From positions 33,477-97,476 of the IMG/VR virus record IMGVR_UViG_2603880160_000004: a DNA stretch of 64,000 bases; one strand, written 5' to 3'. Shown one piece after another: positions 22,426 through 39,037 of the stretch (the first letter of the stretch is position 1; each line of letters opens with the position of its first letter). Source of the stretch: a virus (Duplodnaviria; Caudoviricetes). The notes under the pieces were generated by a model, which searched no databases, was not told the origin of the DNA, and worked only from the letters and a program-made list of their open reading frames with translations. The position numbers and the translations under genes are program-made.

Positions 22426-22463
22426 AATTATAATATAGATAAAATCCACAAGAATGTAAATTT

Positions 22464-22519
22464 TCTGGAAAATTTTTATTTCACTTTTAGGGGTAAAGTC
22501 CATTTTTTGACTTTTTTTC
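22464..22519. repeat. 56-bp direct repeat, copy 2
   Basis: TCTGGAAAATTTTTA..TCACTTTTAGGGGTAAAGTCCATTTTTT.ACTTTTTTTC. Confidence 0.9.
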
Positions 22520-22539
22520 CGGAAAAATTTCAGTCGAGG

Positions 22540-22715
22540 TATTGACCCCCCTTTCAGAACACCGAAATACCCCCTATATAAGGGGGGATACGGGAGGGGG
22601 GAGGGGGTATATCCCTACACCCACTACTGATAGGGGGATGCCACACAACATTGTTCCCGAAGGGTTCACCTATGGTTACCAACAAGTTATTAACAACGGA
22701 ATGTGGATAACTTTA
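22540..22715. other. non-coding strand-switch region with C/G homopolymer tracts and a DnaA-box match; terminus or origin candidate
   Basis: G6-ATAC-G3-A-G6-A-G5 at 22582-22607; TGTGGATAA at 22702. Confidence 0.45.
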
Positions 22716-22776
22716 TTTGTATATTCTAACTTTGTATTAGTATATACACTATCTTTGTATCCACAAACAATAAGAT

Positions 22777-23331
22777 ATGAACATTACAAAAACTGAACTA
22801 AAAGATATACTATCAGGTATAGATATCTTTGTCCCTAATGTGGGATTGACAACATTAAAAAAAGTTAAGATGAATAAGTATCTTGACTTCAAGACAAGTG
22901 GTAAGAGTAACCCTAACCCTTACTATGACCAAGTATCTATTGAACAACGATTATCAAATATCCAAACGGGTTTTGATTACGAGGGTCAATTAGAACGAAA
23001 GTATAAAAGTGAGGGAATCACTCCTACCGACAACGAGGACAAAAAAGAAAGTTGGTTTACCCAAGTTTCAAAGTGTTTAGTTGTTAGTAAGAAGAATCCC
23101 GATAATTTTTACTTCCGTTACCAAGACCACGATAGTAGTTATTTGGAAACCAAGTATATTTTTGAGGGTAATAGTATTGACAAGGTAATGTTCACTCAAT
23201 ACCTTATTGATACGAAAACGGACTACTCAAAGTATCAAAATGGTTTAGAGAATACTTTGAACTTCAAGGTAACTTCATTAGACCACATTAAAAGAATTAA
23301 AATTCTTAAACAAGAATACACAATTCTTTAA
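22777..23331 (+). CDS. hypothetical early protein
   Basis: Own promoter; terminator at 23353-23379. Confidence 0.75.
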   Translation: MNITKTELKDILSGIDIFVPNVGLTTLKKVKMNKYLDFKTSGKSNPNPYYDQVSIEQRLSNIQTGFDYEGQLERKYKSEGITPTDNEDKKESWFTQVSKCLVVSKKNPDNFYFRYQDHDSSYLETKYIFEGNSIDKVMFTQYLIDTKTDYSKYQNGLENTLNFKVTSLDHIKRIKILKQEYTIL

Positions 23332-23690
23332 GGTTTGTTCCCCTACAAACTGACCACTCCGAAAGGGGTGGTTTTTTTTTGACTTCACTCATACTTCGTA
23401 ATCCAAATTATTGTTTGGCATTTGTCATACAACGAACCTTGACTTCACTTTACCGGAGTAATTGGTTTGGCAAGTTTAGTGAAACTTTTTCTACCCCCCG
23501 TGAATTTAAAATTTATTGTTTGGCATTTGTCATACACCGAACCCTTGAGTCAGTTTACTCAGTCAATGTTGGTTGGCAATTGCCAGAACATATTCAAACC
23601 GATCAGGAAAAAAAATATTCTAAAATTAATTAAAATATATTTGTTGTATAAAGATAAAAGTATTATCTTTGTGTCCACAAAACAAACAAT

Positions 23691-24488
23691 ATGAAAATTA
23701 AAGAAAACCAATTATTTGAAACTATTTCAAGTAAAAAACCAAAATACAAAAAATTTGTATTAGGTAATGATGTATTATTAACTTGTCAATCAATTAAGAT
23801 TGATAATGTTTATCAACCTATGTGGGATAATAAATTTGATGTGTATGCAAAAAATATGTGTTCAATCTTAAAGTTATTACCTAATAGAGAATGTTTGTTA
23901 TTTTATCCAAGTGATAAACAAAGTTTATATAACAATATTGTTTTTGAATATGTGAAAAATGATAATGACGTTATCTTTACACATAACCAATATATAAGTG
24001 GTAATTTATTTCAATCTTTTCAATACTTTAATTTGAAAACCAATGAAGTTAGATTTTTAGAAAAAACTAATGGTGTTAATGGAATTGATGAAAAAGTAAG
24101 ATTAAGTTTAGATGAATACTATCTTAAATTGTGGGGTAACAATTATACTTGTAATATTTTAACTGATGTAATTGAATTCATATTAAAACCAATGATTTTT
24201 ATTGAGTTGTCTGGTGTGAATGTGAAGTTTATTGACATTAAATCTAAAAGTGAGTATGGAAGTATATTAAAACCAATTCATGTTAAAAATCAAACGAGAG
24301 TAAATGTGGTGTATGTTAATAGTTTATGGAATGTGGGTACGATAGCTTTGGGTGAGTTTAAGGTTAGAGGTCATTTTAGATTACAAAGGTGTGGTGTAGG
24401 TAATACAGAGATTAAGTTAATCTTCATTGAGGAGTTTGTTAAGACCCACTACATTCGTAAGTCCACAAAAGAATTGGTACTTGGTTAA
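23691..24488 (+). CDS. phage hypothetical protein
   Basis: C-terminal VRGHFRLQRCG motif; own promoter and terminator. Confidence 0.7.
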   Translation: MKIKENQLFETISSKKPKYKKFVLGNDVLLTCQSIKIDNVYQPMWDNKFDVYAKNMCSILKLLPNRECLLFYPSDKQSLYNNIVFEYVKNDNDVIFTHNQYISGNLFQSFQYFNLKTNEVRFLEKTNGVNGIDEKVRLSLDEYYLKLWGNNYTCNILTDVIEFILKPMIFIELSGVNVKFIDIKSKSEYGSILKPIHVKNQTRVNVVYVNSLWNVGTIALGEFKVRGHFRLQRCGVGNTEIKLIFIEEFVKTHYIRKSTKELVLG

Positions 24489-24861
24489 TTGTTTTCATAG
24501 GTTTTATGTTTTGACCCTCGTAGTAATACGGGGGTTTTTTATTTCCCTACCAACCTCGTCCGTGAATTTATTGTTTGGCAATTGTCATACAAGGAATCTT
24601 GAGTCAGGGTTCGGGAAAATTATTGTGTGGCAAATACGGATATGATATAAGATATCTACGGATATTAACGGATATGCCAAACAAGTTTTTGTAACCTCAG
24701 GAACCAAGTGGTTTTGTCATACATGCCAAACAATATCCGGATGGAGACGACAGATGAAAAATCTTGGTATTGCATTTAAAATAATTTGGTGGATAAAAGA
24801 ATTATCGTTATCTTTGTGGTTCATATTAAACGTCAGTCAAGACGATAAAACAATAAAGAAT

Positions 24862-25155
24862 ATGAAAAAGAAAATGACACAAGAGCAATTTGATTGGAAC
24901 ATCAAGTTCTTAAAAGAAGAATGGAACTATTGTATTGAGTTGATTAACGAAAAGAAAAAAGAGTTAGACAACTTCACGATTGACAACCACAAAGGATTGT
25001 CCGAACAACACGACTTTATGGGTATCGTAAGACACACTATTGGAAAAGGTTGGTACTTCACCAATAAAGAAAATACTCCTATCTCTCAAAAAGAGTTGGT
25101 TTATAATTCTTTCAAAACACTTCATAGTGTGTTTGATAGTATAGAACAAAATTAA
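24862..25155 (+). CDS. hypothetical early protein
   Basis: Start moved to MKKKMTQ, downstream of the promoter. Confidence 0.65.
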   Translation: MKKKMTQEQFDWNIKFLKEEWNYCIELINEKKKELDNFTIDNHKGLSEQHDFMGIVRHTIGKGWYFTNKENTPISQKELVYNSFKTLHSVFDSIEQN

Positions 25156-25371
25156 AAAATAACCCTCACTGAAAAGTGGGGGTTTTTTATTACCACCTGA
25201 AAGTAACTGGACCTGGTGAGAATTTGTGTGGCAAATGCCAAACAATATCCGGATGGAGACGACAGGTGAGAGATTTTGGTATTACATTAACAATATTTTA
25301 ACAACAAATTCTTAATAGATGAGAAAGTATAAAGATAAAAGTATTATCTTTGTGTTCTAAATGATAATACT

Positions 25372-25713
25372 ATGACAACCGAAGAAAAACTTTTGACATA
25401 TGGTTCTCAAAGACCTTTTGAACCTAATCAAACATTAAAGTTATTACAACAAGATATCAATATCTTTTGGAGTTGGGGTGTTGAGAAGAAAATATTGGTT
25501 ATTGGTAAGGAAAGCGATGGTTGGGTTAAAGGTATTATATTCAAGGTAAATGGTTTCAAGTGGAAACAATATGTTATGATTACTTTAAATGGTTTGGACT
25601 ATTATGAAGTAAGGTTATTAACACAAAACTTTGATGTCATTGAAACCAAAGACCACGATATATGTTTTATGGATTTGGTTGAAGTAATTGATAAGTTGGT
25701 TGAAACAAAGTAA
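25372..25713 (+). CDS. phage hypothetical protein
   Basis: FWSWG..FKVNG..VMITLNGLDYYEV. Confidence 0.7.
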   Translation: MTTEEKLLTYGSQRPFEPNQTLKLLQQDINIFWSWGVEKKILVIGKESDGWVKGIIFKVNGFKWKQYVMITLNGLDYYEVRLLTQNFDVIETKDHDICFMDLVEVIDKLVETK

Positions 25714-26167
25714 ATTTTCTGTTTTTCATATTTTAGTTTTCCCCCTCGGAGTGATTTCCCGAGGGGTTTTTGTTTTTGGGAGATGCCGTAACACAGATGG
25801 ACCTGGTGGAATGTTGTTTGGCAGATTCGTATTACATTTCTCCATGTGACTGATCATCCGAATATATTGATTGGCAATGCTGTTACATTTTTATATATAA
25901 AAGTAACATGCCAAACAACATTCCTATGATCAGCTCGTCCCACGGGAAAGTGTATTATATTACACATTCAGTTACCTTTTTGGTATTCGTATTACATATT
26001 GTATCAAATAGTGTAATATATTACACATTGCCAGTCAATAATTTTTCCGGTCTTCCTCCACGGGTATTACATTAACAAAGTTTTAACAAAAATATTCTAA
26101 AAAAGATTTGGTATATAATTGTATTACACTTATCTTTGTCCTATTACTAATCTAAATCTAAATTAAA

Positions 26168-26383
26168 ATGTTAAATCAAGTAAAAGACCTTGTTGGAAAA
26201 AGAGTGAAACTTATTCTAATGAATGATGACCCTCAAACAAATCCTATCCCACCGAACACAATGGGAACAATCCTATCGGTAGACGATATGTACTACTATC
26301 GTGTTAAATGGGATAATGGTAGAATATTAAACCTACTACCCGATGAAGATGAATATGAAATTATTGAGAACCCTATAAATTAA
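26168..26383 (+). CDS. DUF4314-like SH3-fold protein
   Basis: GKRVKLILMNDD..PIPP.T.GT..VDD...VKWDNGR.L.L. Confidence 0.75.
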   Translation: MLNQVKDLVGKRVKLILMNDDPQTNPIPPNTMGTILSVDDMYYYRVKWDNGRILNLLPDEDEYEIIENPIN

Positions 26384-26387
26384 ATGT

Positions 26388-26675
26388 ATGAACGATTTTA
26401 TTGATGTAATGAGAAGAGAAACAAAAAGGCATATGGATGAAAAAGGTATCTTTAGAAAAGATATTACTTTAAACCCAACAACACCAATTACTGAATTGGA
26501 ATTATCAACAAGATTAAAAAATGTGTTATCAAAACACAATATTAAAAATGTTTCTCAATTAGAGGAATTAACCACGAGTGTAGTATTAAGTATGAAAGGT
26601 TTGGGTGATAAGTTAGTTATCGAACTACAAAACTTTCAATATCAATATCGTATTTGTCCATTCAATAAATTTTAA
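26388..26675 (+). CDS. RNA polymerase alpha C-terminal-domain-like protein
   Basis: ITELELSTRLKNVL...I..V.QL......MKGLGDK. Confidence 0.75.
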   Translation: MNDFIDVMRRETKRHMDEKGIFRKDITLNPTTPITELELSTRLKNVLSKHNIKNVSQLEELTTSVVLSMKGLGDKLVIELQNFQYQYRICPFNKF

Positions 26676-26679
26676 ATAA

Positions 26680-27030
26680 ATGTTAGTTAAATTAACCCAC
26701 CGCGGCACACCGACCTTAGTAAATGTAGACCAAATCGTATCTATCTATATGGATACTGATATGAAAAGTGGTTTGGTACAATCCAAAGTTACCACAACCA
26801 ATGGTATTGTGTTCGTTGAGGAGTCCCTGAATGTAATCCAAAAAATGGTTTGGCAAGTTAAGAATGGTGTTCCACCCGAAATGGACTATGAAGTTCCTAC
26901 TATCGAACAACGATTAGAGAAGTCGTACAACAATGAAAGACCTTTGTCATACGAACCAATTAGTCATAGAGTAAGAACTCCTATAAGAAGGAATTATAAC
27001 CCTCATACTTTCCAAGACAACCAATTTTAG
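26680..27030 (+). CDS. FlbD-like domain protein
   Basis: MLVKLT..TLVNVDQIVSI...VEES. Confidence 0.55.
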   Translation: MLVKLTHRGTPTLVNVDQIVSIYMDTDMKSGLVQSKVTTTNGIVFVEESLNVIQKMVWQVKNGVPPEMDYEVPTIEQRLEKSYNNERPLSYEPISHRVRTPIRRNYNPHTFQDNQF

Positions 27031-27663
27031 TTTTTGTGTTTGTGAGTTCATATTGTGTTCCCCTCGTAGAAATACGGGGGGTTTTTATTTTATCAAATTC
27101 AGCAAAACTGTGCAGATCATGTAATGTTGTTTGGCAGAAAAGTTCTCTAAAAGGTTTTACACTATTTACTAAAAACTTACTAAAAGTTCTCTAAAGAATT
27201 ATGAAACCCTTACTACCATTGACTTTCGTGTTATGAAGTGGAGGGAATTCACCCCGACAGTGGGTCCCGTACAATTTGTTTGGCAAACGTAATACAAGTC
27301 ATAATGAAACTTATCGTTCAAACACAAGTCATTTATCAATCATTTTGACACCTATTTGACCGATAAACGAATTTTTAATGAACGATAAATGTGGTTAGAC
27401 CATGTGCCACAGACCTGTGCACATATTGTTTGGCAAACGTATTACACCACAACCTCAAGATTATGATCAGTCGTCTGAAACTTGTTTGGCATGTTCACTT
27501 ATTACCGATGTTCACGGTCCGTGAACAAGAAGAATTAGTGAACAAGATTGCCACACAATATTTGAGACGGACGAACAGGTGAAATATTCTTTAACAAAAT
27601 TTTAATAAAAATATTTGTGTATGTTACATAAAAGAATTACCTTTATACTCTAAATTAAACACT

Positions 27664-28206
27664 ATGAAAAAATTTGAATTAGAAGTCGTTCAAGACACAG
27701 ACCCTGAAAGTCCTCGAACTTGGGATAACTTGGGAACAATGGTTTGTTTTCACAAAAGGTATGAACTTGGTGATAAGACCGATTATCGTACAGAAGATTA
27801 TGATAGTTGGGATGAATTAAAAGAAGGTATCATTAAGAATGAAGGTGAAGTTGTTATCTTACCTTTGTATCTTTATGACCACTCGGGAATTACAATATCC
27901 ACAAGTTCTTTTGATTGTCGTTGGGATAGTGGACAAGTTGGTTTTATCTTTGTATCAAAGTATAAGATAAAGAAAGAAGGTATTGATGAAACTAAAGTTG
28001 AAGAATACCTTAAAGGTGAAGTTGAAACTTACGACCAATACCTTACGGGCGACGTTTGGGGTTATAAGGTATATGAAGTATCTACTTGTGATAAAGGTCA
28101 CAAACATTGGAACGAAGTTGAAAGTTCTTGGGGTATATACGGACACGATGAATGTGAAAATGAAGGGAAGTCCGTATTACAACATTTAGAAAAAGAAGTT
28201 GTGTAG
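27664..28206 (+). CDS. conserved mobile-element hypothetical protein
   Basis: SPRTWDNLG, LPLYLYDHSGITIST, WDSGQVG, YLTGDVWG. Confidence 0.7.
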   Translation: MKKFELEVVQDTDPESPRTWDNLGTMVCFHKRYELGDKTDYRTEDYDSWDELKEGIIKNEGEVVILPLYLYDHSGITISTSSFDCRWDSGQVGFIFVSKYKIKKEGIDETKVEEYLKGEVETYDQYLTGDVWGYKVYEVSTCDKGHKHWNEVESSWGIYGHDECENEGKSVLQHLEKEVV

Positions 28207-28599
28207 AAATATATATGGTTGGAAGGTGAAGACCCTCGAAGTAATTCGGGGGTTTTTTATGTTACCGCCTCTCCACAGATTTCCCATCCGGGATATTGTT
28301 TGGCAAACGTATTACACTTACCCGTGTCCCACAGCGCATGCATAAAATGTTGTTTGGCATTTGCCAATCAATATCGGGAGCTGGCCACACAGATTCCAGT
28401 TCGTATTACACTTGTCCAGTTTTTTATATAATAAACGGGACATTCTTGCCAATCAATATCCCGAAGGTGCTGCAGGTGGACACATTCTCGTATTACATGT
28501 GTGGATAACTTTATTAAAATATATTCTAATTAATTTGGAATATATAAAAGAATATTCGTTATCTTTGTGTCCTATTCATTAATCTAAAAAATAATTAAA

Positions 28600-29346
28600 A
28601 TGAACAAGATTCAAATCGGAAAGAAAGTAGGAGAAATTTTTGAAACAAAAGATTATTCAATCTTTAAGTTTCGTGAGGACAACAGATTAGTAAACGCTAA
28701 TCATGTTAAGAAGTTAGCTAATCGTATGAAAGAAAAAGGTTGGTTATCTTCATCAGTTGTTACGTTAAACGGAAGTGGTGAAGTTATTGACGGACAACAT
28801 AGAGTAAAGGCTGCAATGTCAGTCGGTAGTCCAATTCGTTACAAAGTAACTAAAGGTGCAGGTAGTGATGAAATGACCGGTATGAACACATTACAAAAGA
28901 ATTGGTCACCATTTGACCACTTACACAAGTTTGTAACTAAAGGTAATTCTCACTATGTAACCTTTGATAGATTTGTTAATGAATTTCCAATGTTTAAGTA
29001 CACGGAAGTTGCAATGTTATTGAACAACACTTTGACAACAATTGCTCGTGATACATTTGAAAGTGGTAATTATGTTGTTAAGAATGAAAAGAAAGCTCGT
29101 GAGTGGGCGGGTTACATCTTGGAGTTGAAACCATACTTTGAGAAGTATTACACTAAAGCCATTTTCGTAAGAGCATTTATTAAAATTATCTCTAACAAGA
29201 AAGATTTTGTGTTTAGTGAGTTCTTACACAAAGTGAAGTTACGACCAAACAATTTAGTGGCTTGTGGTACGGTAGACCAATATGTAGAAATGATTGAAAA
29301 CATTTACAACTACAAGAGAAGTAACAAAATTAATTTAAGGTTTTAA
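28600..29346 (+). CDS. ParB/Srx-like (DGQHR) domain protein
   Basis: NR.V...HV.KL..VIDGQHRVKAA. Confidence 0.75.
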   Translation: MNKIQIGKKVGEIFETKDYSIFKFREDNRLVNANHVKKLANRMKEKGWLSSSVVTLNGSGEVIDGQHRVKAAMSVGSPIRYKVTKGAGSDEMTGMNTLQKNWSPFDHLHKFVTKGNSHYVTFDRFVNEFPMFKYTEVAMLLNNTLTTIARDTFESGNYVVKNEKKAREWAGYILELKPYFEKYYTKAIFVRAFIKIISNKKDFVFSEFLHKVKLRPNNLVACGTVDQYVEMIENIYNYKRSNKINLRF

Positions 29347-29576
29347 TTTGGGTTAGTGAATAATAGGAACGGGGGTTGTCGTAAGACAATCCCTTTTTTT
29401 TGTCTAAACTTTTTCTTCTGATCGTCTTCTGGATATTGTTTGGCAATTGCCACACAATATTAGTTCCTGCACAACATCCTGAGGTGTTCGTATTACATAT
29501 CCTTTAACAAAATGTTAACAACTATTATTTGGTGGTTAATATAAAAAGACTACCTTTACACTCTAAATTAATTAAT

Positions 29577-30425
29577 ATGAATGAACAAGTTAAAAGTTTA
29601 TTAGACAAAACCAACCTAAATTGGTCGGTACGTCAAGAGGACATCCAAACCACAAGTGGTATTATTGTTCCAAACAAAAAAGCATTAGTTCGTGAAGACA
29701 CCAACACAATCGTAGGTGTTCACTCGGATGGTTATCAACCTTATCAAAACCATGAGTTGATGGACTTATTACATCAAGTAAGTGGAAGAACAGGTTTAGA
29801 AGTTCACAAAGGTGGTGAGTTCAAAAATGGTGGTCGTATTTATGTTCAATTAAAAGGTAACAACCTTAAATTGGGTAATGACGTCATCGAGGGTTTCTTA
29901 ACGGGTGTTAATTCTTTTGATGGTTCCACATCATTAGCATTCGGTCATTCTAACACAACTATCAGTTGTATGAATACTTTCTTTAGAGTAATGAAAGGTT
30001 TAGAAAACAAGGTTCGTCATACAAAATCTTTATCATTAAAGGTAGAAGACATATGTAAGAGATTGGACATTGTTTTGGAAGAAGAAAAAGAAACATTTAG
30101 ATTCATTACTGAATTAAGTGAGACACGTTTTGATGATTTGTTGAAGGAGAAGGTGACACGAAAATTGTTTGGCATTAAACCCGAAGTAAATTTGAATGAT
30201 GAAAATTCAATCTCAACAAGAACAAGAAACAATTTAAGTAGATTCTACATTGACTTAAATGGTGAGATTAGTCAAAAGGGTGATAACCTTTGGGGTTTAT
30301 TTAGTGGAGTTACCAAGTACACAACACACTCTTATAGTAAGAACGATAATACCGAAGTTAAAATGTTTGGTAATGTCGGACAAGTTGAACAAGAGATATT
30401 CTCCGATTTAGTGGAGTTAGTATAA
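29577..30425 (+). CDS. DUF932/DUF945 family protein
   Basis: LNWSV, ALVREDT, YQPYQN, NSFDGS, CMNT, RHT, LWGLFSGVT. Confidence 0.8.
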   Translation: MNEQVKSLLDKTNLNWSVRQEDIQTTSGIIVPNKKALVREDTNTIVGVHSDGYQPYQNHELMDLLHQVSGRTGLEVHKGGEFKNGGRIYVQLKGNNLKLGNDVIEGFLTGVNSFDGSTSLAFGHSNTTISCMNTFFRVMKGLENKVRHTKSLSLKVEDICKRLDIVLEEEKETFRFITELSETRFDDLLKEKVTRKLFGIKPEVNLNDENSISTRTRNNLSRFYIDLNGEISQKGDNLWGLFSGVTKYTTHSYSKNDNTEVKMFGNVGQVEQEIFSDLVELV

Positions 30426-30828
30426 TATTGATTTGTGGAATAATCAGTTGGTGACAACCTGTCGAACCCTCGTAGAAATACGGGGGTTTTTTATTTTGTA
30501 ACTGCCGTGGGCACAGATCGTCCAGGAAATATTGTTTGGCAAGTGCCAGTCAATATCGACAACGCATGTTCCTGAAGTTCCACTTGTTCCTAAAAAGATG
30601 TCCCACTTGTTCCCGAAGTCCCTGAAGTCCCCGACAGATGCCAATGTTGTTTGGCAAGCGTATTACATATGTCAAGTATTCTGCTCAATAAACTTGACAT
30701 TTCTGCCAAACAATATCGTAGCTCTGATCACAGGTATTACATTTGTTAAATTCTTTAACAAAGTTTTAACAAATTAATTTGAAAGATAAAAGAATATTCA
30801 TTATCTTCGTGTTCTAAATATAAATGAT

Positions 30829-31023
30829 ATGGAATATAAAATTGTGTATGGTGATAGTCCAAGTGAAATAAACACCAAAGTAAATGAAATGATTAACAAT
30901 GGATGGGAAATTGTGGGTTCTCACCAAGTTGTAATTCGTAGAGAACAAAATAGATATAGTGGTTCTCAACATATGGACACACTAAACCAATTAGAATATA
31001 CACAAACAATGATTAAAAAATAA
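30829..31023 (+). CDS. DUF1737-like small protein
   Basis: YKIV..VNEMINNGW...YTQTMIK. Confidence 0.6.
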   Translation: MEYKIVYGDSPSEINTKVNEMINNGWEIVGSHQVVIRREQNRYSGSQHMDTLNQLEYTQTMIKK

Positions 31024-31026
31024 ATT

Positions 31027-31224
31027 ATGACCAAGTATCAAGTATTAAGTCCCGACGGGTTTACGATTGAGTTCGATAAACCACATTATCCAAGTAAGAA
31101 AAAAGCAACGGAAGCTTTTAACAAATGGAAAAAACGATATGAACTACAAGGATATTATAGTTCTAACAACGGAAGAATCCCTTTGGATGAATTAGAAAAT
31201 AATTGTAAAATTCAAATGATATAA
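31027..31224 (+). CDS. hypothetical protein
   Basis: Tightly packed operon member. Confidence 0.6.
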   Translation: MTKYQVLSPDGFTIEFDKPHYPSKKKATEAFNKWKKRYELQGYYSSNNGRIPLDELENNCKIQMI

Positions 31225-31226
31225 CA

Positions 31227-31445
31227 ATGATAAAGTCAATCGAAGAAAAAGAAAACAAATTAGAAATCGACCTTACGGGGCCGAATGGAAATGTATTCTA
31301 CCTAATTGCAACCGGTGGAAGATTATGTAAACAACTTGGTCTTAATTCAGAAATGTTCTATCGTCGTATGACAAGCGGAGATTATGAAAATGCTGTGGCA
31401 ACATTCGAAGAATACTTTGGAGATTATGTAACCCTTTATAGATAA
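31227..31445 (+). CDS. conserved phage protein
   Basis: IDLTGPNGNVF...MTSGDYE. Confidence 0.7.
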   Translation: MIKSIEEKENKLEIDLTGPNGNVFYLIATGGRLCKQLGLNSEMFYRRMTSGDYENAVATFEEYFGDYVTLYR

Positions 31446-31448
31446 ATT

Positions 31449-31730
31449 ATGACAAAGAAAGAAATTACCCGACAACTACAAGAAGCTTCTAATTGGATTT
31501 TTGTAGTATCAAAAGAAAGTGATGAACCACATATAACAAGTATGTTGGAAGGTATTGAAAATGCTATTAATAACTTATCAATGGATGTTATTGAGGTGGA
31601 CATCGCATTTTATCATCCTGAAGATGGGAATGGTATTGTAGATGAAACCATTAAGGTTTACGATGAAGAAGGTATGAGAGAAGAATTCGAATATAAATTA
31701 GATTGTATCATTAAAAACGCAGGAATATGA
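31449..31730 (+). CDS. acidic hypothetical protein
   Basis: Operon packing. Confidence 0.6.
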   Translation: MTKKEITRQLQEASNWIFVVSKESDEPHITSMLEGIENAINNLSMDVIEVDIAFYHPEDGNGIVDETIKVYDEEGMREEFEYKLDCIIKNAGI

Positions 31731-31984
31731 AACTACACATTTTAAAAATTCATGACAGAAAAGACCATTTATCTGATGATTTTTTTCTTACCATTCCATT
31801 CTTAAGGGATAGAGTGGTAAAAGATTGGTATGATATATGGGATGAGACAAGTATTACAAAACAACAAATCATCGAGAGTGATGAAATGTTATTCGACTAT
31901 ATGGATAGTTTTGGTTATGATGTTGAAACCATTTTAACAATCACCGAACACGACATTAATCAAGTTTTAAATAAAGTATCATGA
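31727..31984 (+). CDS. hypothetical protein
   Basis: ATGA overlaps with both neighbours. Confidence 0.6.
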   Translation: MKLHILKIHDRKDHLSDDFFLTIPFLRDRVVKDWYDIWDETSITKQQIIESDEMLFDYMDSFGYDVETILTITEHDINQVLNKVS

Positions 31985-32220
31985 TAGTAGAATTAAAATC
32001 CGTCGCATCTGTAATTGACACCGAAACCAAAATCATCTATCCAAAATATCAGATGGGTGGGTATGATAAGTTGTCCGGCAAACACATCGATGACCTTGAT
32101 AAGAAGTTTGTGGATGAAATATCTGAAGCTGACATTACATTAATTAATGAATCACTTAAACCAAATATTAACCCGTACGACGACTTATATCGTAGAAGGG
32201 GTATTAGAAGTAAATATTAA
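31981..32220 (+). CDS. hypothetical protein
   Basis: ATGA overlap. Confidence 0.6.
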   Translation: MIVELKSVASVIDTETKIIYPKYQMGGYDKLSGKHIDDLDKKFVDEISEADITLINESLKPNINPYDDLYRRRGIRSKY

Positions 32221-32223
32221 CTT

Positions 32224-32508
32224 ATGAAAACATTTGAATTCTTTTTAGACCAAAAGGTTACGACTTGGATGAGAACCGAGTTTGAGGTAAAGGCTAATGA
32301 TTTAAACGAAGCTGTTAAGATTGCCAAAGAAAAATTTGAGAACGGGGACCTGGACGATATTGGTTGGCAAGAGATTGATGGCACCAAGGAAATATTACAA
32401 CCAAGTGATAATGGTGGTGAAACAACTGCCGAACTTTATAACATGAATCATTTAGGTGATATAATGGAAGTTTATAACAATAAACTTGGTAAAGTGGAGA
32501 ATATTTAA
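32224..32508 (+). CDS. hypothetical protein (DpnD/PcfM-like motif)
   Basis: FEVKANDLNEAVKIA. Confidence 0.55.
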   Translation: MKTFEFFLDQKVTTWMRTEFEVKANDLNEAVKIAKEKFENGDLDDIGWQEIDGTKEILQPSDNGGETTAELYNMNHLGDIMEVYNNKLGKVENI

Positions 32509-32706
32509 TATATTTATAATGTGTCTTACCCACTATGGGTGTGTTTGTTATACGATGGGTGTCAGAAATGATACCCATTTTTTATTTGATGTAATACCTG
32601 TGAGGCCCCTGACGGATATTGTCTGGCAAAAATAAATAAAAAAATAAATTTGTTGGTTTGTATTATATTTTGTATTACCTTTACATTTCAACAAATCCGT
32701 AAAACT

Positions 32707-32883
32707 ATGACGACTACTATTAAATTGTCGCCAAACAACAAGACGTATGAAATTTGGTACACTAACAATGGCACAGATTACAAACTACATAAGACAGGTA
32801 TTACAACGATTGATGAAGCAATGAAAGAGACAACAATAATCAAAGGTAGTTCTCGACTACTTCGTGATTTATGTAAAAAATAA
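32707..32883 (+). CDS. small early protein
   Basis: Start moved to MTTTIK; promoter and terminator present. Confidence 0.6.
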   Translation: MTTTIKLSPNNKTYEIWYTNNGTDYKLHKTGITTIDEAMKETTIIKGSSRLLRDLCKK

Positions 32884-33164
32884 TATGGTTCAGGGTTAGT
32901 AAGTTTAGTTCAGTCCCTCGTAGAAGTACGGGGGATTTTTTTGCGATGTTGTTTCGCATGTAATACTTGTTTCGCATAGCATGCTACTGATCTGCGCGCA
33001 GCAACAATGTTGTTTGGCAAAACATAACTCATTGATTATCAACAACAGAATTTGCCAAACAATATCCACCAGATGCGCGCGCATGTTTTTTTTATAAAAA
33101 AGCTCTAAATAATTTGGTGTTATAAAAGAATATTCATTATCTTTGTATCCTAAAACTTACAACT

Positions 33165-33626
33165 ATGGGATTAGATATGTATCTCTACAAGAAACACTAT
33201 GTTAAGAATTGGGATTGGATGGCTGACCAAGAAAAGCACACCATCTCTATTAAGAAAGGTAAAAAGAAATTAGACCACATCAAACCTGACAGAGTTTGTT
33301 CTGTTGTTGAAGAAGTGATGTATTGGAGAAAATTCAATGCTCTTCACAAATGGTTCGTCGATAATGTACAAGAGGGTGTGGATGATTGTAAAGAAAGTTT
33401 TGTAGATGAATCAGACCTCAAGATGTTATTGGAAACATTAACATATGTCTTGGAGAATAAAGATACGGCGGAAAATATACTTCCAACAGCACAAGGTTTC
33501 TACTTCGGTAATGATGAGATGGACGATAACTATTGGAATTATGTTAAATCCACGATTATTCAACTTAAGGATTTATTAGAAGAAGATAATAAAGGAGCTT
33601 CCTTTTACTATCGTTCATCTTGGTAA
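33165..33626 (+). CDS. conserved phage protein (MGLDMY family)
   Basis: MGLDMYL..YWRKFNALH.WF..GFYFG..YYRSSW. Confidence 0.75.
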   Translation: MGLDMYLYKKHYVKNWDWMADQEKHTISIKKGKKKLDHIKPDRVCSVVEEVMYWRKFNALHKWFVDNVQEGVDDCKESFVDESDLKMLLETLTYVLENKDTAENILPTAQGFYFGNDEMDDNYWNYVKSTIIQLKDLLEEDNKGASFYYRSSW

Positions 33627-33644
33627 TCAATTAAATTATAAATC

Positions 33645-34307
33645 ATGCCAAACTGGTGTAACAACTCCATTAGAATTAATGGTGATAAAAAAATGATATC
33701 TACTTTAGTAAGAGTTATCGAAAGTACCAAAGATACTGATGACAGAGTATTCCAATCCCTTATAGGATTCCCCGAACATATGACCAAATCTGATTATGAT
33801 AGAGATTGGTATGATACCAATGTGGGTTGGTTCGGAACGAAGTGGGATGTGTCATACGATACTTGTAATATGGAATATGATGAAACTGAAATCAGATTAT
33901 ATCCTGATACAGCTTGGAGTCCTCCCATAGAATTTCTAACCAACTTGGTCAAGCAGTATGAGGGTATCGAAGCTTACATCTTTTATAGTGAAGGTGGTAT
34001 AGGATTCAGTGGTGAAACTAAAATCTATCGTGATGAGAATGGAGATATAATAGTAGATGATAGTGAACATCCTTACTTGGAAGGCATTTATCTGTTGGAC
34101 AAGGAATTGTTTTGGAATTCCGAGCTTGAATCTATGATTGATTCAGCTCGAGATGAAATAACATCTGATGATGAGGACGAGGATGGTGAAGTTAAAAAGA
34201 TAGATGAAGTAAAAATTATAGAGTATGTAAACGAGAACTTCGGTTTCGTAACGGATGAAGATAAAGAAACAATTATTAAACAATTTAAAGAAGAATTAAA
34301 TGACTAA
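33645..34307 (+). CDS. DUF1281/YubB-like ferredoxin-fold protein
   Basis: MPNWCNN, WFGTKWD, DTAWSPP. Confidence 0.75.
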   Translation: MPNWCNNSIRINGDKKMISTLVRVIESTKDTDDRVFQSLIGFPEHMTKSDYDRDWYDTNVGWFGTKWDVSYDTCNMEYDETEIRLYPDTAWSPPIEFLTNLVKQYEGIEAYIFYSEGGIGFSGETKIYRDENGDIIVDDSEHPYLEGIYLLDKELFWNSELESMIDSARDEITSDDEDEDGEVKKIDEVKIIEYVNENFGFVTDEDKETIIKQFKEELND

Positions 34308-34527
34308 AGAGAAAGTGGTTAAGACCACATACCCCGACAAACATCTAACTCAGGACGAGTGGTTCCGCCAATTTGGTGTGGCAAGTTTCTATGACAAACC
34401 AACCCCATACTATGGAGGCAATCATTTTAACACCCGAGTTTTTCTCGGTCGACCACAGAGATCATCCTGGTCGATATTGTCTGGCAGATTTATTAAAGAT
34501 TTTATAAACAATTTAAACATACTATAA
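34300..34527 (+). CDS. hypothetical protein containing a TGGCA box
   Basis: Overlaps both neighbours. Confidence 0.5.
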   Translation: MTKEKVVKTTYPDKHLTQDEWFRQFGVASFYDKPTPYYGGNHFNTRVFLGRPQRSSWSILSGRFIKDFINNLNIL

Positions 34528-35027
34528 TGGGTAGGTTAAATAAAACCACGGAAGGAGTATTCGTAAACATTGTAGGGACCTCTAAAGAAAGGAGTTCCTA
34601 TGATCAATTCATAACAAGAAGTAACGGATCTGATCAGCCAGGTGGATATTGTCTGGCAGATTTTGTAACAGAGTACAGTAACAAAGTTTCTAAACACAAG
34701 GTGGACTTTCAACAGTTGTCTGACTTAGAAGTAATCATTATGCAGATTAGAGCCTTAACTAACATGAAGGACACTATCAAACTCTACACTGTAAGAGATA
34801 CATATGTGTATGGTCGTTGTCCTTTCTTTAGGTCCGATAACGATATCAATGAAGTTAGAGTTCTAATAGACCCAATAGATTTATACTTCCCCGATGGAAC
34901 AGCAGATCTCGCAATGTTGTCTGGCAATCAATTGTTTATGTTGAAGGTGTATGACAAGGTATCTGCCGTAATGTTAACAGAGATTGTAGAAAATGTTAAT
35001 AACTATAAAAAAATATATTCCAAATAA
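34527..35027 (+). CDS. hypothetical protein containing two TGGCA boxes
   Basis: 166-aa ORF. Confidence 0.6.
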   Translation: MGRLNKTTEGVFVNIVGTSKERSSYDQFITRSNGSDQPGGYCLADFVTEYSNKVSKHKVDFQQLSDLEVIIMQIRALTNMKDTIKLYTVRDTYVYGRCPFFRSDNDINEVRVLIDPIDLYFPDGTADLAMLSGNQLFMLKVYDKVSAVMLTEIVENVNNYKKIYSK

Positions 35028-35078
35028 TTTTGTGATATCATAACTATGTCATAACTTTAAACCCTAAACTTAAATCAT

Positions 35079-35642
35079 ATGAAGCGTATTACACTTGAGA
35101 GTGATGTGATGGTCAGTGACCCTTGCTACTCGGATGAAACTTGGTGTCAAGTTAAACTAAAGGATGTATTACCTGGTGGTTACATAACTACCGTGAGAAA
35201 AACTGAGGACCCTAATTGGGGGAACAGGTGTTCTGTATTACTTACTGTCCACGAGGATTATGTGGAGGATACATTGTCTTGGAGGAATTACCCTGGTCAA
35301 GTTGGGGTGGATTCAGGTCAAGCAGGAATCTTCAGCATGTCTTCCTTCAAGAATGACGACATTGCCGCAAGTATTACAACACCCGATAAGACATATGATG
35401 GAAGACCATTTACCTTAGGTTTAAAAGATAGGGATGGTGATGAGTGGTACGAGAAGATGTGCCAGTTCACATTATCCACCGAGTCGTGGGGTATGTATGA
35501 CACAGGTGTGGTATCATCATCAGGTATTGGGGATGGTGGGTACCGATGTCTTGTGGCAAAACACAAGGGGAAGATTGTAGGAATTGCAATAGATTTTGGT
35601 ATGGAGAGGTTCCCAAACAAATTCTTAAATGAATTAATATAA
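35079..35642 (+). CDS. DUF4241-like protein
   Basis: VSDPCY, GVDSGQAGIF, SSGIGDGGY. Confidence 0.65.
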   Translation: MKRITLESDVMVSDPCYSDETWCQVKLKDVLPGGYITTVRKTEDPNWGNRCSVLLTVHEDYVEDTLSWRNYPGQVGVDSGQAGIFSMSSFKNDDIAASITTPDKTYDGRPFTLGLKDRDGDEWYEKMCQFTLSTESWGMYDTGVVSSSGIGDGGYRCLVAKHKGKIVGIAIDFGMERFPNKFLNELI

Positions 35643-35649
35643 GATTAAT

Positions 35650-36021
35650 ATGTCAAAGAAAATCAAAGTTAGGTTCAATCTCGGGAGAGGTGAGAACTAT
35701 ATGAAGTGGAAGGTGGAGTATCCGAATGGATGGACCAAGTACTTCAAACCCACAGATGTTCAGTTGGTAATGTCAGATTGTATCCTCAAGAATAGTAGAG
35801 CAACAGCTCTGAAGATATTAAATGGGGAACACAAGATGGTATGTGCATCAGTCCTTTGTGACACCATTGATATTAGAACTGAGGACTTCATTCCAGACAA
35901 TGGACAACAGGTGAAGTATAATCCAAGAGTTCTTCCATTCTGGAATAGGGATGGTGTGGATATGGATGGTTCGAAGATAAAAGAAATGTATTCAACTGAT
36001 TTCAAACTTAATATTAAATAA
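35650..36021 (+). CDS. phage hypothetical protein
   Basis: VRFNLGRG..YMKWKV; YNPR. Confidence 0.65.
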   Translation: MSKKIKVRFNLGRGENYMKWKVEYPNGWTKYFKPTDVQLVMSDCILKNSRATALKILNGEHKMVCASVLCDTIDIRTEDFIPDNGQQVKYNPRVLPFWNRDGVDMDGSKIKEMYSTDFKLNIK

Positions 36022-36022
36022 T

Positions 36023-36205
36023 ATGGACAATCAAATACTTAAAATTTACATCAAATCCGAAATCAGTCGTATTCGACATTCAATTGATATGGGGAACATA
36101 TTACCTGTTGCTGGTTTAGCACAGATAGATATCTTAGAAAAGTTAGAACATGTATTCCAACTTGATAAGGAAACTATCAAAGTAACATATCATAACAACT
36201 TTTAA
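36023..36205 (+). CDS. hypothetical protein
   Basis: Operon packing. Confidence 0.5.
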   Translation: MDNQILKIYIKSEISRIRHSIDMGNILPVAGLAQIDILEKLEHVFQLDKETIKVTYHNNF

Positions 36206-36245
36206 CATCACCTGATCAGGCATGTGAATATTGTCTGGCAAAATT

Positions 36246-36458
36246 ATGTACAGTATGGAGAACATGTATAAACATATGTTAAGGGATTTACTTAAGAAGA
36301 AGTTCAGAGCTGTTACTTCCGAGAAAGGTTCCTTAAAGAACTTAGGTAAGTTGGAGATCATAGAAGAACTATATGATCATCTTGGATTTGATAACATCGA
36401 GGATGAGGAGCTCACTCCCGACCAAATCATGGTGAGATTATATAAACCACAATACTGA
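36246..36458 (+). CDS. hypothetical protein
   Basis: ATG start after the TGGCA box. Confidence 0.5.
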   Translation: MYSMENMYKHMLRDLLKKKFRAVTSEKGSLKNLGKLEIIEELYDHLGFDNIEDEELTPDQIMVRLYKPQY

Positions 36459-36582
36459 TTGGGACAGTGAGTCTGTGGAATGTTGTTTGGCAATTCCAAA
36501 AATAAATTGCCATTTATTTTTTTTTACCGAATTAATGGTTTATATTTTATAAACAATAATGTTAAATTAAAATTCAGTAAAA

Positions 36583-36759
36583 ATGAAAACAACCAAAACT
36601 CGTTCTACCAAGACAACTTATGTACCTGTATCTAACAATGTATACTTCGACGGTAACAGCTACCGCGTTCGTGTATCTGTAGAGGGAACTAAGTTCAGTA
36701 AGAATTTCTCAAACAAGAGAACAGCGATTACTTACAGAAATACTTTATTATCTGCATAA
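36583..36759 (+). CDS. 58-aa AP2/integrase-arm-like DNA-binding protein (not in the ORF track)
   Basis: Hand translation ..NVYFDGNSYRVRVSVEGTKFSKNFSNKRTAITYRN..; own terminator at 36786. Confidence 0.65.
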   Translation: MKTTKTRSTKTTYVPVSNNVYFDGNSYRVRVSVEGTKFSKNFSNKRTAITYRNTLLSA

Positions 36760-36881
36760 CCTGTAGATTATAAGAACGATAGTAGACCCTCCACTATTGT
36801 GGGGGGTTTATTATTTAAAGACGACACTGATCAGGAGATCAACACTGTGAATATTGTTTGGCAAGAAACTATTTATATAAC

Positions 36882-37715
36882 ATGAAGATAATGGACATTA
36901 TATCAGAACAAGAAGAGACCAATTACAAGGTGGTTGAATTCAAGAACCTCTTGGAAAAGATAAAGAAGGACTTATGGTTTAAGAAGGACCTTAAGTTATC
37001 CAGTGGGACAGGTTACATGTCATACACGATTAGTTCGAATGGATTAATATTTGAAGTTAACGTGGTATACAACCCTGATCATGTTAATCCAATCATACCG
37101 TCAGATTTATTTAAAGTGGCAGGGGACGAAGTGATCAACTTAATTTGTTCGGCAAAAGGAATGTCCAAGGATGAATTGGTTCAATACTTCGGTGGTGTGT
37201 TAAATAACTATAGTATCCAAATCTATAAAACCGTAATATTCCTAATGGAGGGTGTCTTTGAGTTAAGACGATACATGGACAATAACATCTATAATATGAA
37301 AATAGATACCCCACATATAATGAGTGAGTTATTCAGAAATGAGAACTTATACCAATTATTGCCAGAACAATTACCAAGGTTCTCAGAAGACTACGCCACT
37401 ACAATGTCCAAACTAATTAAGAAGTGTAAGACAATCTATATGGCAATGGGTAAAGGAACTTGGAAAGGACACGTATATGACTACGGTAAGTTTAACCAAT
37501 CTAATATTGTGGTACACCAAAAGGATTACAATTATAACAAAAGGGATAAGATACTTAACCCTGATTTCGAGATAACCTATGGTGCCTCTTGGCCACTCAT
37601 AGATGGAATTAAATTTAACACAGACGAGAATCCATTAACCGCATATGAAATGGACGAATTTAGAAATTGGATAGAAGCCAAGTTTAAACACTTCGGTATA
37701 GAGTTCAACGCGTAA
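36882..37715 (+). CDS. MKIMDIISE-tag protein with C-terminal copy of the 41-43 kb domain
   Basis: TATTTATA upstream; KTIYMAMGKG..KFKHFGI. Confidence 0.65.
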   Translation: MKIMDIISEQEETNYKVVEFKNLLEKIKKDLWFKKDLKLSSGTGYMSYTISSNGLIFEVNVVYNPDHVNPIIPSDLFKVAGDEVINLICSAKGMSKDELVQYFGGVLNNYSIQIYKTVIFLMEGVFELRRYMDNNIYNMKIDTPHIMSELFRNENLYQLLPEQLPRFSEDYATTMSKLIKKCKTIYMAMGKGTWKGHVYDYGKFNQSNIVVHQKDYNYNKRDKILNPDFEITYGASWPLIDGIKFNTDENPLTAYEMDEFRNWIEAKFKHFGIEFNA

Positions 37716-38439
37716 TACAACATATACATATTTTAATTGTTCGGGGACCCTATGGGTCCCCTTCAGGTTTTAGGGATGTCCGTAGTGGAACGAATGTATG
37801 ACGGACAATAGTGTTTGGCCCAAAAGTTCTCTAATATTGTTTGGCAAGTTTTGTGTAAGTATTACACTTAAATGGTTAAACGACGATATCCCCGATATTG
37901 TCTGGCAAGGACCCACGTATGACATGTGAGTAAAATGTGAATAACTATCTCCCTCCCTTCGGTCGGTCGTCAGGGTGTGGATAAAGATGTGTATTACTTG
38001 TGAACCTATAACCTACATTATGTTAAATGGAATGTTAAGTATTACAAGTCACTGTATTACGTATACTATCTTTTATATATACATAAATATATCAGACACT
38101 ATGACAGACCTGAAGGGGTCCGAAGGACCCCGTATTACAGTTATATATTCAAATTTTTATGGATATGGTCCTTGATTCGGACAGAGGACAATCCCCACAT
38201 ACTACCACTTTTCCCCACATTCTCCCCAAATTACCGATATTATATACGGTATCAATAAATATCTACTAAAAGTGGGAATTTCAACCTCTAAATATTTTCC
38301 GACAGATCAAGGTAAATAAAGTGGGGATATTAGTATCAATATCGGGGATAAATTAGGGGTGTTTTTTACACCCCATTCGGTGGGAAAACCCGACCACCGG
38401 GAGGTAATTTTCGGGGGTATATAGGTGGGAATTTTATAC
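37716..38439. other. long structured non-coding region
   Basis: Hairpins at 37743 and 38116, DnaA-box matches at 37936 and 37976, last TGGCA boxes, CCCCAC repeats. Confidence 0.55.
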
Positions 38440-38464
38440 TATATTTGTATCAAACTAAACTACT

Positions 38465-39037
38465 ATGCCGTTCAAAGACAAAGAAAAAAAGAAAGAATAT
38501 GGTCAGATGTATTATCAAATGAACAAGGAAAAACATTACGAACGTACTAAACTACGTAGAAAAAACAACCCTCAAGAAAGGAAAATAAATGATAAAAAAT
38601 ACAGAGAAACTCATAGGGAACAGAAGAGAATTTACGATACCAAATACAGAAGGGAGAACAGACATGTGGCTCGAGAGTGGGAAAGAAATCGTAGAAAGAC
38701 TGATCCATTATTTAAACTAAGAACGAACTTAAGAAAGAATATAGGTCGTTCATTAAAGAGAGAAGGGTTTAAGAAGATATGTAAAACTATGACCATTCTG
38801 GGAACAGATTACAAAACCTTTAAGGAATATCTCGAGGGACAATGGGAATCATGGATGTCGTGGGACAATTATGGTCTATATAAAATGGATACCTTCAACT
38901 ATGGGTGGGACATAGACCACATTATACCAACCTCAACAGCAAAGACAGAAGAGGAAGTTCTTAAACTAAACCATTATACCAATCTTAAACCTTTGTGTAG
39001 TAAAGTGAATAGGGACATCAAAAGGAATAAAGTATAA
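38465..39037 (+). CDS. HNH-type endonuclease
   Basis: WDIDHIIP...NHYTNLKPLC..N; basic helical N-terminus. Confidence 0.75.
   Translation: MPFKDKEKKKEYGQMYYQMNKEKHYERTKLRRKNNPQERKINDKKYRETHREQKRIYDTKYRRENRHVAREWERNRRKTDPLFKLRTNLRKNIGRSLKREGFKKICKTMTILGTDYKTFKEYLEGQWESWMSWDNYGLYKMDTFNYGWDIDHIIPTSTAKTEEEVLKLNHYTNLKPLCSKVNRDIKRNKV

Follow-up and report, generated by a model that had tools for sequence, protein, structure and literature searches.

TGGCA boxes with a polar G+C-rich flank between the gene cassettes of a freshwater Caudoviricetes phage: candidate docking sites for a DNA-binding protein

What use could a phage have for some forty copies of one short word, crowded into a single region and mostly flanked, on one side only, by G+C-rich DNA that carries restriction-type palindromes? 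The question is raised by a 64,000-nucleotide stretch of Caudoviricetes DNA (the window), which comprises bases 33477-97476 of the 97,476-bp IMG/VR contig IMGVR_UViG_2603880160_000004, a contig rated 27% complete. The repeated element is an asymmetric, non-palindromic 13-nt word, ATRTTGTYTGGCA, referred to here as the TGGCA box; the flank on its ATAT side is referred to as the patch. An earlier, sequence-only reading had proposed an anti-restriction device in which a box-binding protein shields or presents bait sites for host restriction enzymes, or else a sensor of host methylation that tunes early promoters. The explanation favoured here, tentatively and at slightly under even confidence, is that the boxes are polar docking sites of a phage protein that insulates or shuts off early gene cassettes and covers the patch.

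The box was searched for as ATRTTGTYTGGCA with at most two mismatches, and the expectation was derived from 100 shuffles. The window gave 58 matches against 8.3 expected, a count that none of the 100 shuffles reached, and 48 of the 58 fall within positions 22639-37907. This interval of 15.3 kb (the block) contains all 23 exact boxes and all 42 window matches of the core TTGNNTGGCA. Over the whole 97-kb contig, 42 of 45 core matches lie in the block, the other three being located in the 33 kb before the window, and the exact word TTGTTTGGCA was found 24 times, always inside the block. The claim that about 40 boxes are confined to one region was therefore upheld. An even spread over the genome, which had been named as grounds for abandoning the idea, is not what was found in a complete 335,630-bp relative, where all 16 exact boxes lie at 25,416-38,183 (12.8 kb). 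Two further records of relatives have 17 and 8 boxes with a similar strand bias, the loci around the DUF932 gene of five relatives have 34-41 each, and more distant contigs, found via a palindromic pattern, have 9-20 each, with 32 in locus L043. One metagenome-assembled genome (MAG) of Alkalihalobacillus (Bacillota) often matches the search pattern through an unrelated repeated palindrome of the TTGCCTGGCAATTGCCAGGCAA type; the loci with this type of palindrome are L035-L037, L040, L046, L055-L057, L066, L103 and L105.

The boxes are biased to one strand (+:- 29:13 overall and 18:5 among exact copies; 14:2, 16:1 and 7:1 in relatives; 28:6 in sister lineages that use another spelling, or dialect, of the box), and the - boxes form a regular class beside promoters. 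The boxes are mostly single sites, 33 of 43 standing outside pairs with a 2-bp gap. A second block-specific word, GTATTAC(A), occurs in the block 26 times on the + strand and 6 times on the - strand, and 9 times on both strands elsewhere; it is often placed 3 nt after a + box or after the patch of a - box.

The two flanks of the box differ in composition. From -22 to -5, on the ATAT side, the mean GC content is 0.542, with 48-69% G+C at the individual positions and a value of at least 0.5 in 32 of 42 boxes. From +10 to +27, on the opposite side, the mean is 0.306, equal to the 31% background, and at least 0.5 in 2 of 42. The GC-rich 5' side that had been noted by eye thus amounts to 54% against 31% G+C over 18 bp each. 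No position of the patch is conserved beyond 0.5 bit, and a Gibbs search of the patches for a second motif yielded no more than a weak aCCTG word (4.2 bits) without a constant position. Where relatives align, boxes are 92-95% identical, neighbouring DNA 83-87% and patches 72-78%, so that the patch diverges faster than its surroundings; conserved boxes with variable patches had been suggested as a check of the original proposal, and this is the pattern obtained. In aligned spacers the box columns are invariant, and the patch letters differ yet remain G+C-rich. Because the letters change while the composition stays and the boxes are fixed, selection acts on the composition of the patch and not on its sequence. 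Box and patch had also been reported as paired inside open reading frames (ORFs; at 34477, 34649 and 34917). These ORFs are conserved, and from one relative to another the conserved 166-aa ORF retains its box codons, whereas its patch codons differ. Furthermore, two of the three sister lineages with another box spelling keep a polar, G+C-rich patch in which GATC is concentrated; in one of them (L166) 9 of 16 GATC lie within 392 patch bases.

Restriction-type words were evaluated against two controls, (a) shuffles of each patch and (b) 23-mers of matched GC content taken from elsewhere in the contig (n=482, GC 0.53, 80 of them in the early block). GATC is scarce outside the region, as had been estimated: window positions 1-22500 contain 14 against 63.3 expected from base composition. 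The first 20 ORFs of the block (8,070 nt) are free of it. The region has 21 GATC, of which 15 are in 5' patches (1,176 nt, 7.7% of the bases), one is in a 3' flank and five are in the other 13.3 kb, which agrees with the statement that most of them lie beside a box; six of the eight GCGC in the window also lie beside boxes. By control (a), 4-bp palindromes in the patches match composition (51 against 50.0; without GATC, 36 against 46.6), only GATC (15 against 3.3) and TGATCA (7 against 0.1) are enriched, and no word is enriched on the 3' side of the boxes. By control (b), palindromes with at least two G/C have an observed/expected ratio (O/E) of 1.16 in the patches, 0.51 in the GC-matched controls and 0.35 in the controls from the early block. 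The genome as a whole has thus been purged of palindromes and the patches have not. The description of the flank as packed with restriction-modification (R-M) words therefore stands against the purged, GC-matched background and falls against composition. Its premise, that such words are found on one side of the box, was reproduced in seven of seven relatives (patches 0.90-1.68, controls 0.36-0.52; the genomes are related and the counts not independent), and the nine strings quoted as examples were all present where they had been placed.

Summed over the seven relatives, GCGC occurs 44 times in patches against about 18 expected, and 3 times in GC-matched controls against about 49. The escape of the patches from the purge was also observed in two of three sister lineages with another spelling. 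The words depleted genome-wide are GATC, GCGC, AGCT, CTAG, TCGA, GGCC and CGCG; the exempt part makes up 2.6% of the window and is even enriched for GATC and GCGC. Not every word is kept there. ACGT, TCGA, GTAC and CTAG are not retained in the patches, and GATC depends on the lineage (28 of 30 in patches in L013, 2 of 4 in L012, none in the 10.4 kb of L017). The GATC copies prefer the context CTGATCAG and distances of -12, -16/-17, -22 and -27 from the box. If the purge reflects restriction, the exemption would fit a protein cover over the patches. It is, moreover, a rare internal control: it shows that palindromes are actively selected against, and that some 1.2 kb of the early DNA somehow stands outside this selection.

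The dinucleotide GpC is strongly depleted as well. Outside box and patch, between window positions 22500 and 38200, 95 were counted against 295 expected in early ORFs and 10 against 70.5 in other spacer DNA; the rest of the window has 521 against 1132, and box plus patch is normal (77 against 84). CTAG is absent from the whole block, and the early ORFs do not avoid ATC (175 observed, 166.6 expected).

The boxes occupy a fixed place between genes. In the first two thirds of the block nearly each gene has its own intrinsic terminator and is preceded by a cassette that ends in TATCTTTG, a match to the Bacteroidota -7 promoter consensus; the block contains 19 terminator-like sites against 9.1 in shuffles. 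The order between genes is terminator, patch, + box or boxes, - box, patch and promoter cassette. In seven genomes the first box after an intrinsic terminator is a + box in 44 of 44 cases, at a distance of 20-45 nt in 38 of them. The box nearest a host-type promoter is a - box in 10 of the 11 upstream regions listed. Downstream of it come, in this order, 17-32 nt of patch, GTATTACA, the TTAACAA repeats and finally the promoter. Convergent boxes are most commonly separated by 2 bp (about half of 72 close pairs), gaps of 21-23, 32-34 and 42 bp recurring as well. Tandem spacings fall at 46-58 bp, or about five helical turns, in 48 of 103 cases and cluster at 50-55 bp; no divergent pair is closer than 62 bp. 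By these rules of spacing and orientation the patch therefore always faces outward, to the terminator on one side and to the promoter on the other. The block opens with a - box and closes with two + boxes. Its distal third contains + boxes only, some within ORFs and some 5-90 nt before start codons.

The sequence GTATTACA followed by direct repeats TTAACAA-N4-TTAACAA is a shared upstream promoter module distinct from the box, located 63-70 nt upstream of the -7 element of early promoters (for example at window positions 25279-25310, 26064-26095, 29490-29520 and 30734-30775). In sister cassettes the TTAACAA repeats likewise come after GTATTACA.

The arrangement of terminator, facing boxes and promoter points first to the control of transcription units. 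A dedicated binder is suggested because some 13 bp are fixed, the sites are mostly single and asymmetric, pairs stand head-to-head, arrays are phased by five turns, the boxes are confined to one block and dialects exist. The word itself, its confinement, polarity, layout and conservation, and the escape of the patches from the purge are established by the sequences; what we infer is a protein that binds the box, acts as a barrier and shields the patch. The box would be the docking site of a putative sequence-specific DNA-binding protein, most likely encoded by the phage, which would sit on the asymmetric 13-bp word as a monomer and pair head-to-head via its TGGCA end; towards ATAT, the DNA covered by it or by a partner would extend some 20 bp into the G+C-rich patch. 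Boxes bracket every early-gene cassette and would act there as polar barriers or insulators, a role suggested by the outward position of the hard-to-melt patch and by the constant location of the boxes after a terminator and before a promoter. Whichever side a polymerase came from, it would meet first the patch and then the protein, and read-through would be stopped. The early block could thereby be switched off as a unit, which would be temporal shut-off and not immunity. The protein cover would relax selection against restriction words in the patch, and the survival of restriction-type palindromes only there would be explained; cassette swapping at boxes would be a by-product. Sister phages keep the layout and the patch and spell the box differently, as expected for a co-evolving pair of protein and site. 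For the uncultured giant phages of lake Bacteroidota, the box offers a handle on gene timing through its word, its layout, its dialects and a polar barrier that can be tested. If the flanks are shielded by protein or read through methylation, gene control and defence evasion would be combined in a way new for phages.

Several observations weigh against the docking of a barrier protein. Three boxes with full patches lie in a conserved ORF, where a permanent roadblock would cut the phage's own gene. A protein made by the phage is unable to shield incoming DNA unless the virion carries it along. Between the - box and the -7 element the spacing varies (83-113 bp) and has no helical phasing, and the patches hold GATC and GCGC above the shuffle expectation, which is beyond what passive shielding accounts for. 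Finally, no binder was found among the candidates examined, a 58-aa and a 166-aa protein. Solved AP2 and arm-binding domains have a sheet of three or four strands packed on a C-terminal helix. The model of the 58-aa protein (pLDDT 83) gave arm-binding and AP2 domains as its top Foldseek matches, with weak E values of 0.5-0.8 and a VIA Z of 3.6-5.4; however, this AP2-like protein is nearly invariant across the box dialects and is therefore unlikely to read the box. The 166-aa protein matched no known fold (TM at most 0.28). Its ORF (window positions 34527-35027, +) is present in all box dialects with 37-83% identity and contains two in-frame boxes, and residues 1-39, the part that takes in the first box and patch, are predicted to be disordered.

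Table 1. Boxes, box arrays and associated features (window positions unless a relative is named).
Feature	Position	Strand	Remarks
Left-boundary box	22639..22651	-	Upstream of first early promoter cassette
Spacer array	23408..23593		23408+, 23513+, 23566+, 23581- (2 mismatches; 2 bp from 23566+)
Mirror array	24568..24736		24568+, 24620+, 24675-, 24724-; private ACGGATAT repeats centrally
Convergent pair, 2-bp gap	25221..25248		25224+ / 25245-
Array	25811..26041		25811+, 25864+, 25909-, 26029-
Array	27124..27561		27124+, 27273+, 27423+, 27479+, 27549-; inner 27492-27548 a strong hairpin (z -4.7)
Mirror array	28293..28459		28293+, 28347+, 28362- (2-bp gap), 28447-
Example promoter cassette	28490..28599	+	GTATTACA, A/T-rich upstream part, -33/-7-type promoter ending TATCTTTG, leader
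ParB-like protein	28600..29346	+	PHROG only, no Pfam match; candidate binder
Convergent pair, 2-bp gap	29433..29460		Unchanged in 5 aligned genomes, both flanks variable
Example intrinsic terminator	30464..30492	+	
Array	30529..30716		30529+/30544- (2-bp gap), GTTCC-type private repeats, 30644+, 30704-
Single box	32616..32628	+	Upstream of a 58-aa ORF
Convergent pair, 33-bp gap	33007..33065		33007+ / 33053-; both outer sides with GCGC-rich patches
Three in-ORF boxes	34474..34926	+	34474, 34646, 34914; GATC-bearing patch at each
Three boxes	36228..36863	+	36228, 36480, 36851; 5 to 90 nt before start codons
58-aa protein	36583..36759	+	AP2/arm-binding-like fold, weakly supported
Right-boundary pair	37834..37907	+	After last terminator; degenerate copy at 37808
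Sigma-70-family and D12 loci in complete relatives	G001: L029, L032; G002: L030, L031, L153, L155		

Some arrays (Table 1) contain private repeats between their boxes, namely ACGGATAT three times at 24633-24672, a nested TGTTCAC/GTGAACA palindrome at 27492-27548 and seven GTTCC/GTCCC words, spaced about 9-11 nt, at 30556-30640. They look like further binding sites.

The possibility was considered that the boxes themselves start transcription, as whole promoters or core elements of promoters read by an RNA polymerase holoenzyme under phage direction, in a middle mode with one of the phage's own sigma factors. Two proteins of the sigma-70 family (269-286 aa and about 233 aa) are encoded by complete relatives, the boxes are biased to the gene strand, the + boxes of the distal half precede start codons by 5-150 nt at places where a host-type promoter was not seen, and the sister dialects would fit a co-evolving sigma factor. 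However, the commonest arrangement is a pair of boxes face to face 2 bp apart, the box nearest the gene points away from it, and no second element is found at a fixed distance, the Gibbs word of the patches being scattered and positions +27 to +32 unconserved. A search for sigma-70-type promoters, with two hexamers 16-18 bp apart, revealed no conserved partner upstream or downstream of the box, and the region has no surplus of sigma-70-like sites (71 against 78.5). In sigma-54 promoters a GG and a GC element are set a constant 12 bp or so apart; nothing is conserved about 12 bp after TGGCA. Box 36480, moreover, belongs to a hairpin with a T-run. No T7-type RNA polymerase was matched, which counts for little as the control genomes of that search were silent too. 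A promoter function is accordingly considered unlikely.

The hairpin at box 36480 (36480-36520, +) is formed by TGGCAATT and AATTGCCA 9 nt downstream, followed by the T-run. The box is thus part of a terminator-like structure there; the pairing is not conserved in relatives.

The role that had first been proposed for the restriction-type words may be restated as follows: a box-bound protein would keep GATC and GCGC in a protected pocket, either as decoys for host enzymes or as methylation marks that tune early genes. We regard this as rather improbable, with much of the evidence for it already given above, namely the GATC excess over shuffles, its concentration in 7.7% of the region's bases and almost wholly in patches in L013, the GCGC surplus over seven relatives, the GATC-free early ORFs and the preferred distances from the box. 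Additionally, the complete relatives encode D12-class adenine methyltransferases: G001, which is poor in GATC, has one, and G002, which has GATC in its patches, has two. Yet GATC is dispensable in L012 and L017, four other palindromes are not retained, R-M words in general show no excess over composition, and we know of no mechanism whereby uncut bait would help. The two D12 enzymes have no sequence relatives in the PDB that would indicate their specificity, and the phage-type Dam family PF05869 was not matched. In its most elaborate form, to which a similarly low probability is given, the phage would maintain, in its earliest-expressed DNA, about 40 restriction-proof pockets in which methylation of GATC or GCGC alters the hold of the binder, an epigenetic sensor placed in operator flanks across the dialects. 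Were that so, the marks would come from the previous host or from the phage's own methyltransferases, and the sensor would tell modified from unmodified, or parental from new, DNA and set counter-defence genes accordingly.

A further explanation is that the boxes are primarily recombination joints at which promoter-gene-terminator cassettes are swapped, in the manner of PeSL elements or as sites at which a recombinase or transposase of their own acts. Relatives show exchange at boxes, and lake populations may do so too. The gene complement is a mosaic, with jumps of identity between relatives, only about 37% of 20 kb aligns at the DNA level, and indels between relatives are bounded by boxes. 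In four lake runs, where short contigs and a likeness threshold of 88 yield hints only, 6 of 15 listed joints end at a box, and an inversion-type joint between inverted boxes was found in three runs; in the array at 25811..26041, population contigs link 25823 to 25908 across opposite strands. Cassettes have ends of the form TG...CA, with 2 bp between two ends that abut. On the other hand, resolvase, tyrosine recombinase and rve-type transposase domains (PF00239, PF00589, PF00665) are absent from both complete relatives, with positive controls, and no target duplications are visible. The distal part of the block has + boxes only, joints also occur at other repeats, and the conservation of boxes, even in an ORF, together with the 52-bp phasing exceeds what homology-driven exchange needs. 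Recombination as the primary function is thus held to be doubtful, at no more than a small probability.

Last, a role of the units in folded form, be it as RNA or as single-stranded DNA (processing sites, attC-like sites or hairpin promoters, for instance), is very improbable: some inner segments are strong hairpins (27482, z -4.7; 30647; 25867) and the patches of all 8 genomes have a slight excess of dyad symmetry (z 1.1 to 5.7), but inner segments as a class equal their controls (median z -0.45 against -0.32; 3 of 28 against 1 of 50 beating shuffles), a stem of at least 5 occurs in only 7 of 42 patches and in none of L017, most boxes are single, no Rfam family was found over 22000-38800, and conserved pairing is largely not seen.

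A host regulon was also considered and appears unlikely, the box being scarce in the five Bacteroidota genomes searched (1-5 matches in each). In a Bacteroidota MAG, 14 of 16 matches lie on one phage-like contig, and a scan of the collection gave, among the matches listed, mostly single matches in many phyla.

The closest likeness to a barrier protein with many docking sites is found in the stoperators of Cluster A mycobacteriophages (L5, TipsytheTRex repressor), at which a monomeric repressor of two domains stops elongation. The stoperator is a 13-bp asymmetric site present in dozens of copies in short intergenic spaces, its orientation correlates with transcription, and binding requires DNA beyond the 13-mer (PMC9283540). 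Here, too, a 13-nt site has a stoperator-type copy number (42) and a polar flank, and its orientation is biased, if less simply, given the regular - boxes beside promoters. In contrast to stoperators, which are spread over the genome, the boxes are confined to 13-15 kb of 335 kb, form strict convergent pairs and 52-bp arrays, and have a flank rich in G+C and restriction words. Because the phage family has no integrase, they do not serve prophage immunity. The box arrays are best classed with operator- or stoperator-type site arrays, with a new feature, a polar flank exempt from palindrome avoidance.

PeSL (promoter-early stem-loop) cassettes of T4-type phages are repeated units of a terminator and a strong host-type early promoter, clustered in hyperplastic regions of small accessory genes, where they act as recombination joints (PMC2839356, PMC4122927). 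At the level of the cassette, though not of the box, the resemblance is close: host-type promoters and stem-loop terminators repeat, gene content is mosaic, and exchange at boxes resembles the shuffling described in PMC2839356. The TGGCA box differs in that it is neither the promoter nor the terminator; it stands between these two as a separate element that has a layout and a polar patch of its own. As in phage palindrome avoidance generally, the same class of words is depleted genome-wide; the difference is that defined patches are exempt and even enriched for GATC and GCGC. The KorB-OB system of plasmid RK2 and the C1 operators of P1 are systems in which one regulator has many dispersed sites, some of them palindromic or 'bivalent', near many promoters. 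The early block likewise has a ParB-like gene, but its product has no Pfam ParB match, and the boxes are mostly single and polar. A literature search on the box words gave, among the matches listed, only primers and unrelated uses.

The sizeable ORFs at 22.7-37.7 kb are all on the + strand, and both flanking regions are transcribed in the opposite direction. Most ORFs of the block are small and have no assigned function, and Pfam and PHROGs gave no match for most of the small ones; the named domains are DUF932, DUF4314, DUF1737, DUF1281_C/Api92-like, a ParB-like PHROG and one resembling the RNA polymerase alpha-subunit C-terminal domain (alpha-CTD). Relatives range in size up to 316-336 kb, one being rated 100% complete, and the contig of one relative was binned in a Bacteroidota MAG. 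The sequencing runs that contain the box region are lake and freshwater metagenomes, and a megablast search with 15.5 kb of the region against the phage collection gave no match. We infer that the phage is a giant one of Bacteroidota and that the block is its early region, of the hyperplastic kind. A switch of this block would likely control counter-defence functions, because its genes (DUF932, DUF4314, DUF1737, DUF1281_C/Api92-like and ParB-like) are typical of plasmid leading regions.

The alpha-CTD match is a 95-aa ORF at window positions 26388-26675 (+; PF03118, E 1.3e-9, which passes the cut-off), and this ORF may be a free alpha-CTD mimic. It was not found in any tested locus of the relatives, and contigs from two lake runs omit the stretch 26383-26728 that contains it.

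The borders of the block (window positions 22540-22640 and 37940-38420) are odd stretches of G-runs and C-runs with words of the GGGG(A/T)AT type; each of the four runs has population contigs that break off or diverge at 22571-22609, leaving loose ends. The exact word TTATCCACA, which we take to be the DnaA-box consensus, occurs three times in the window, at 22702, 28500 and 37976 (-), two of them at the block borders; three copies of this 9-mer against 1.6 expected is not significant. Words resembling TTATCCACA adjoin boxes in L015, L019, L028 and L043.

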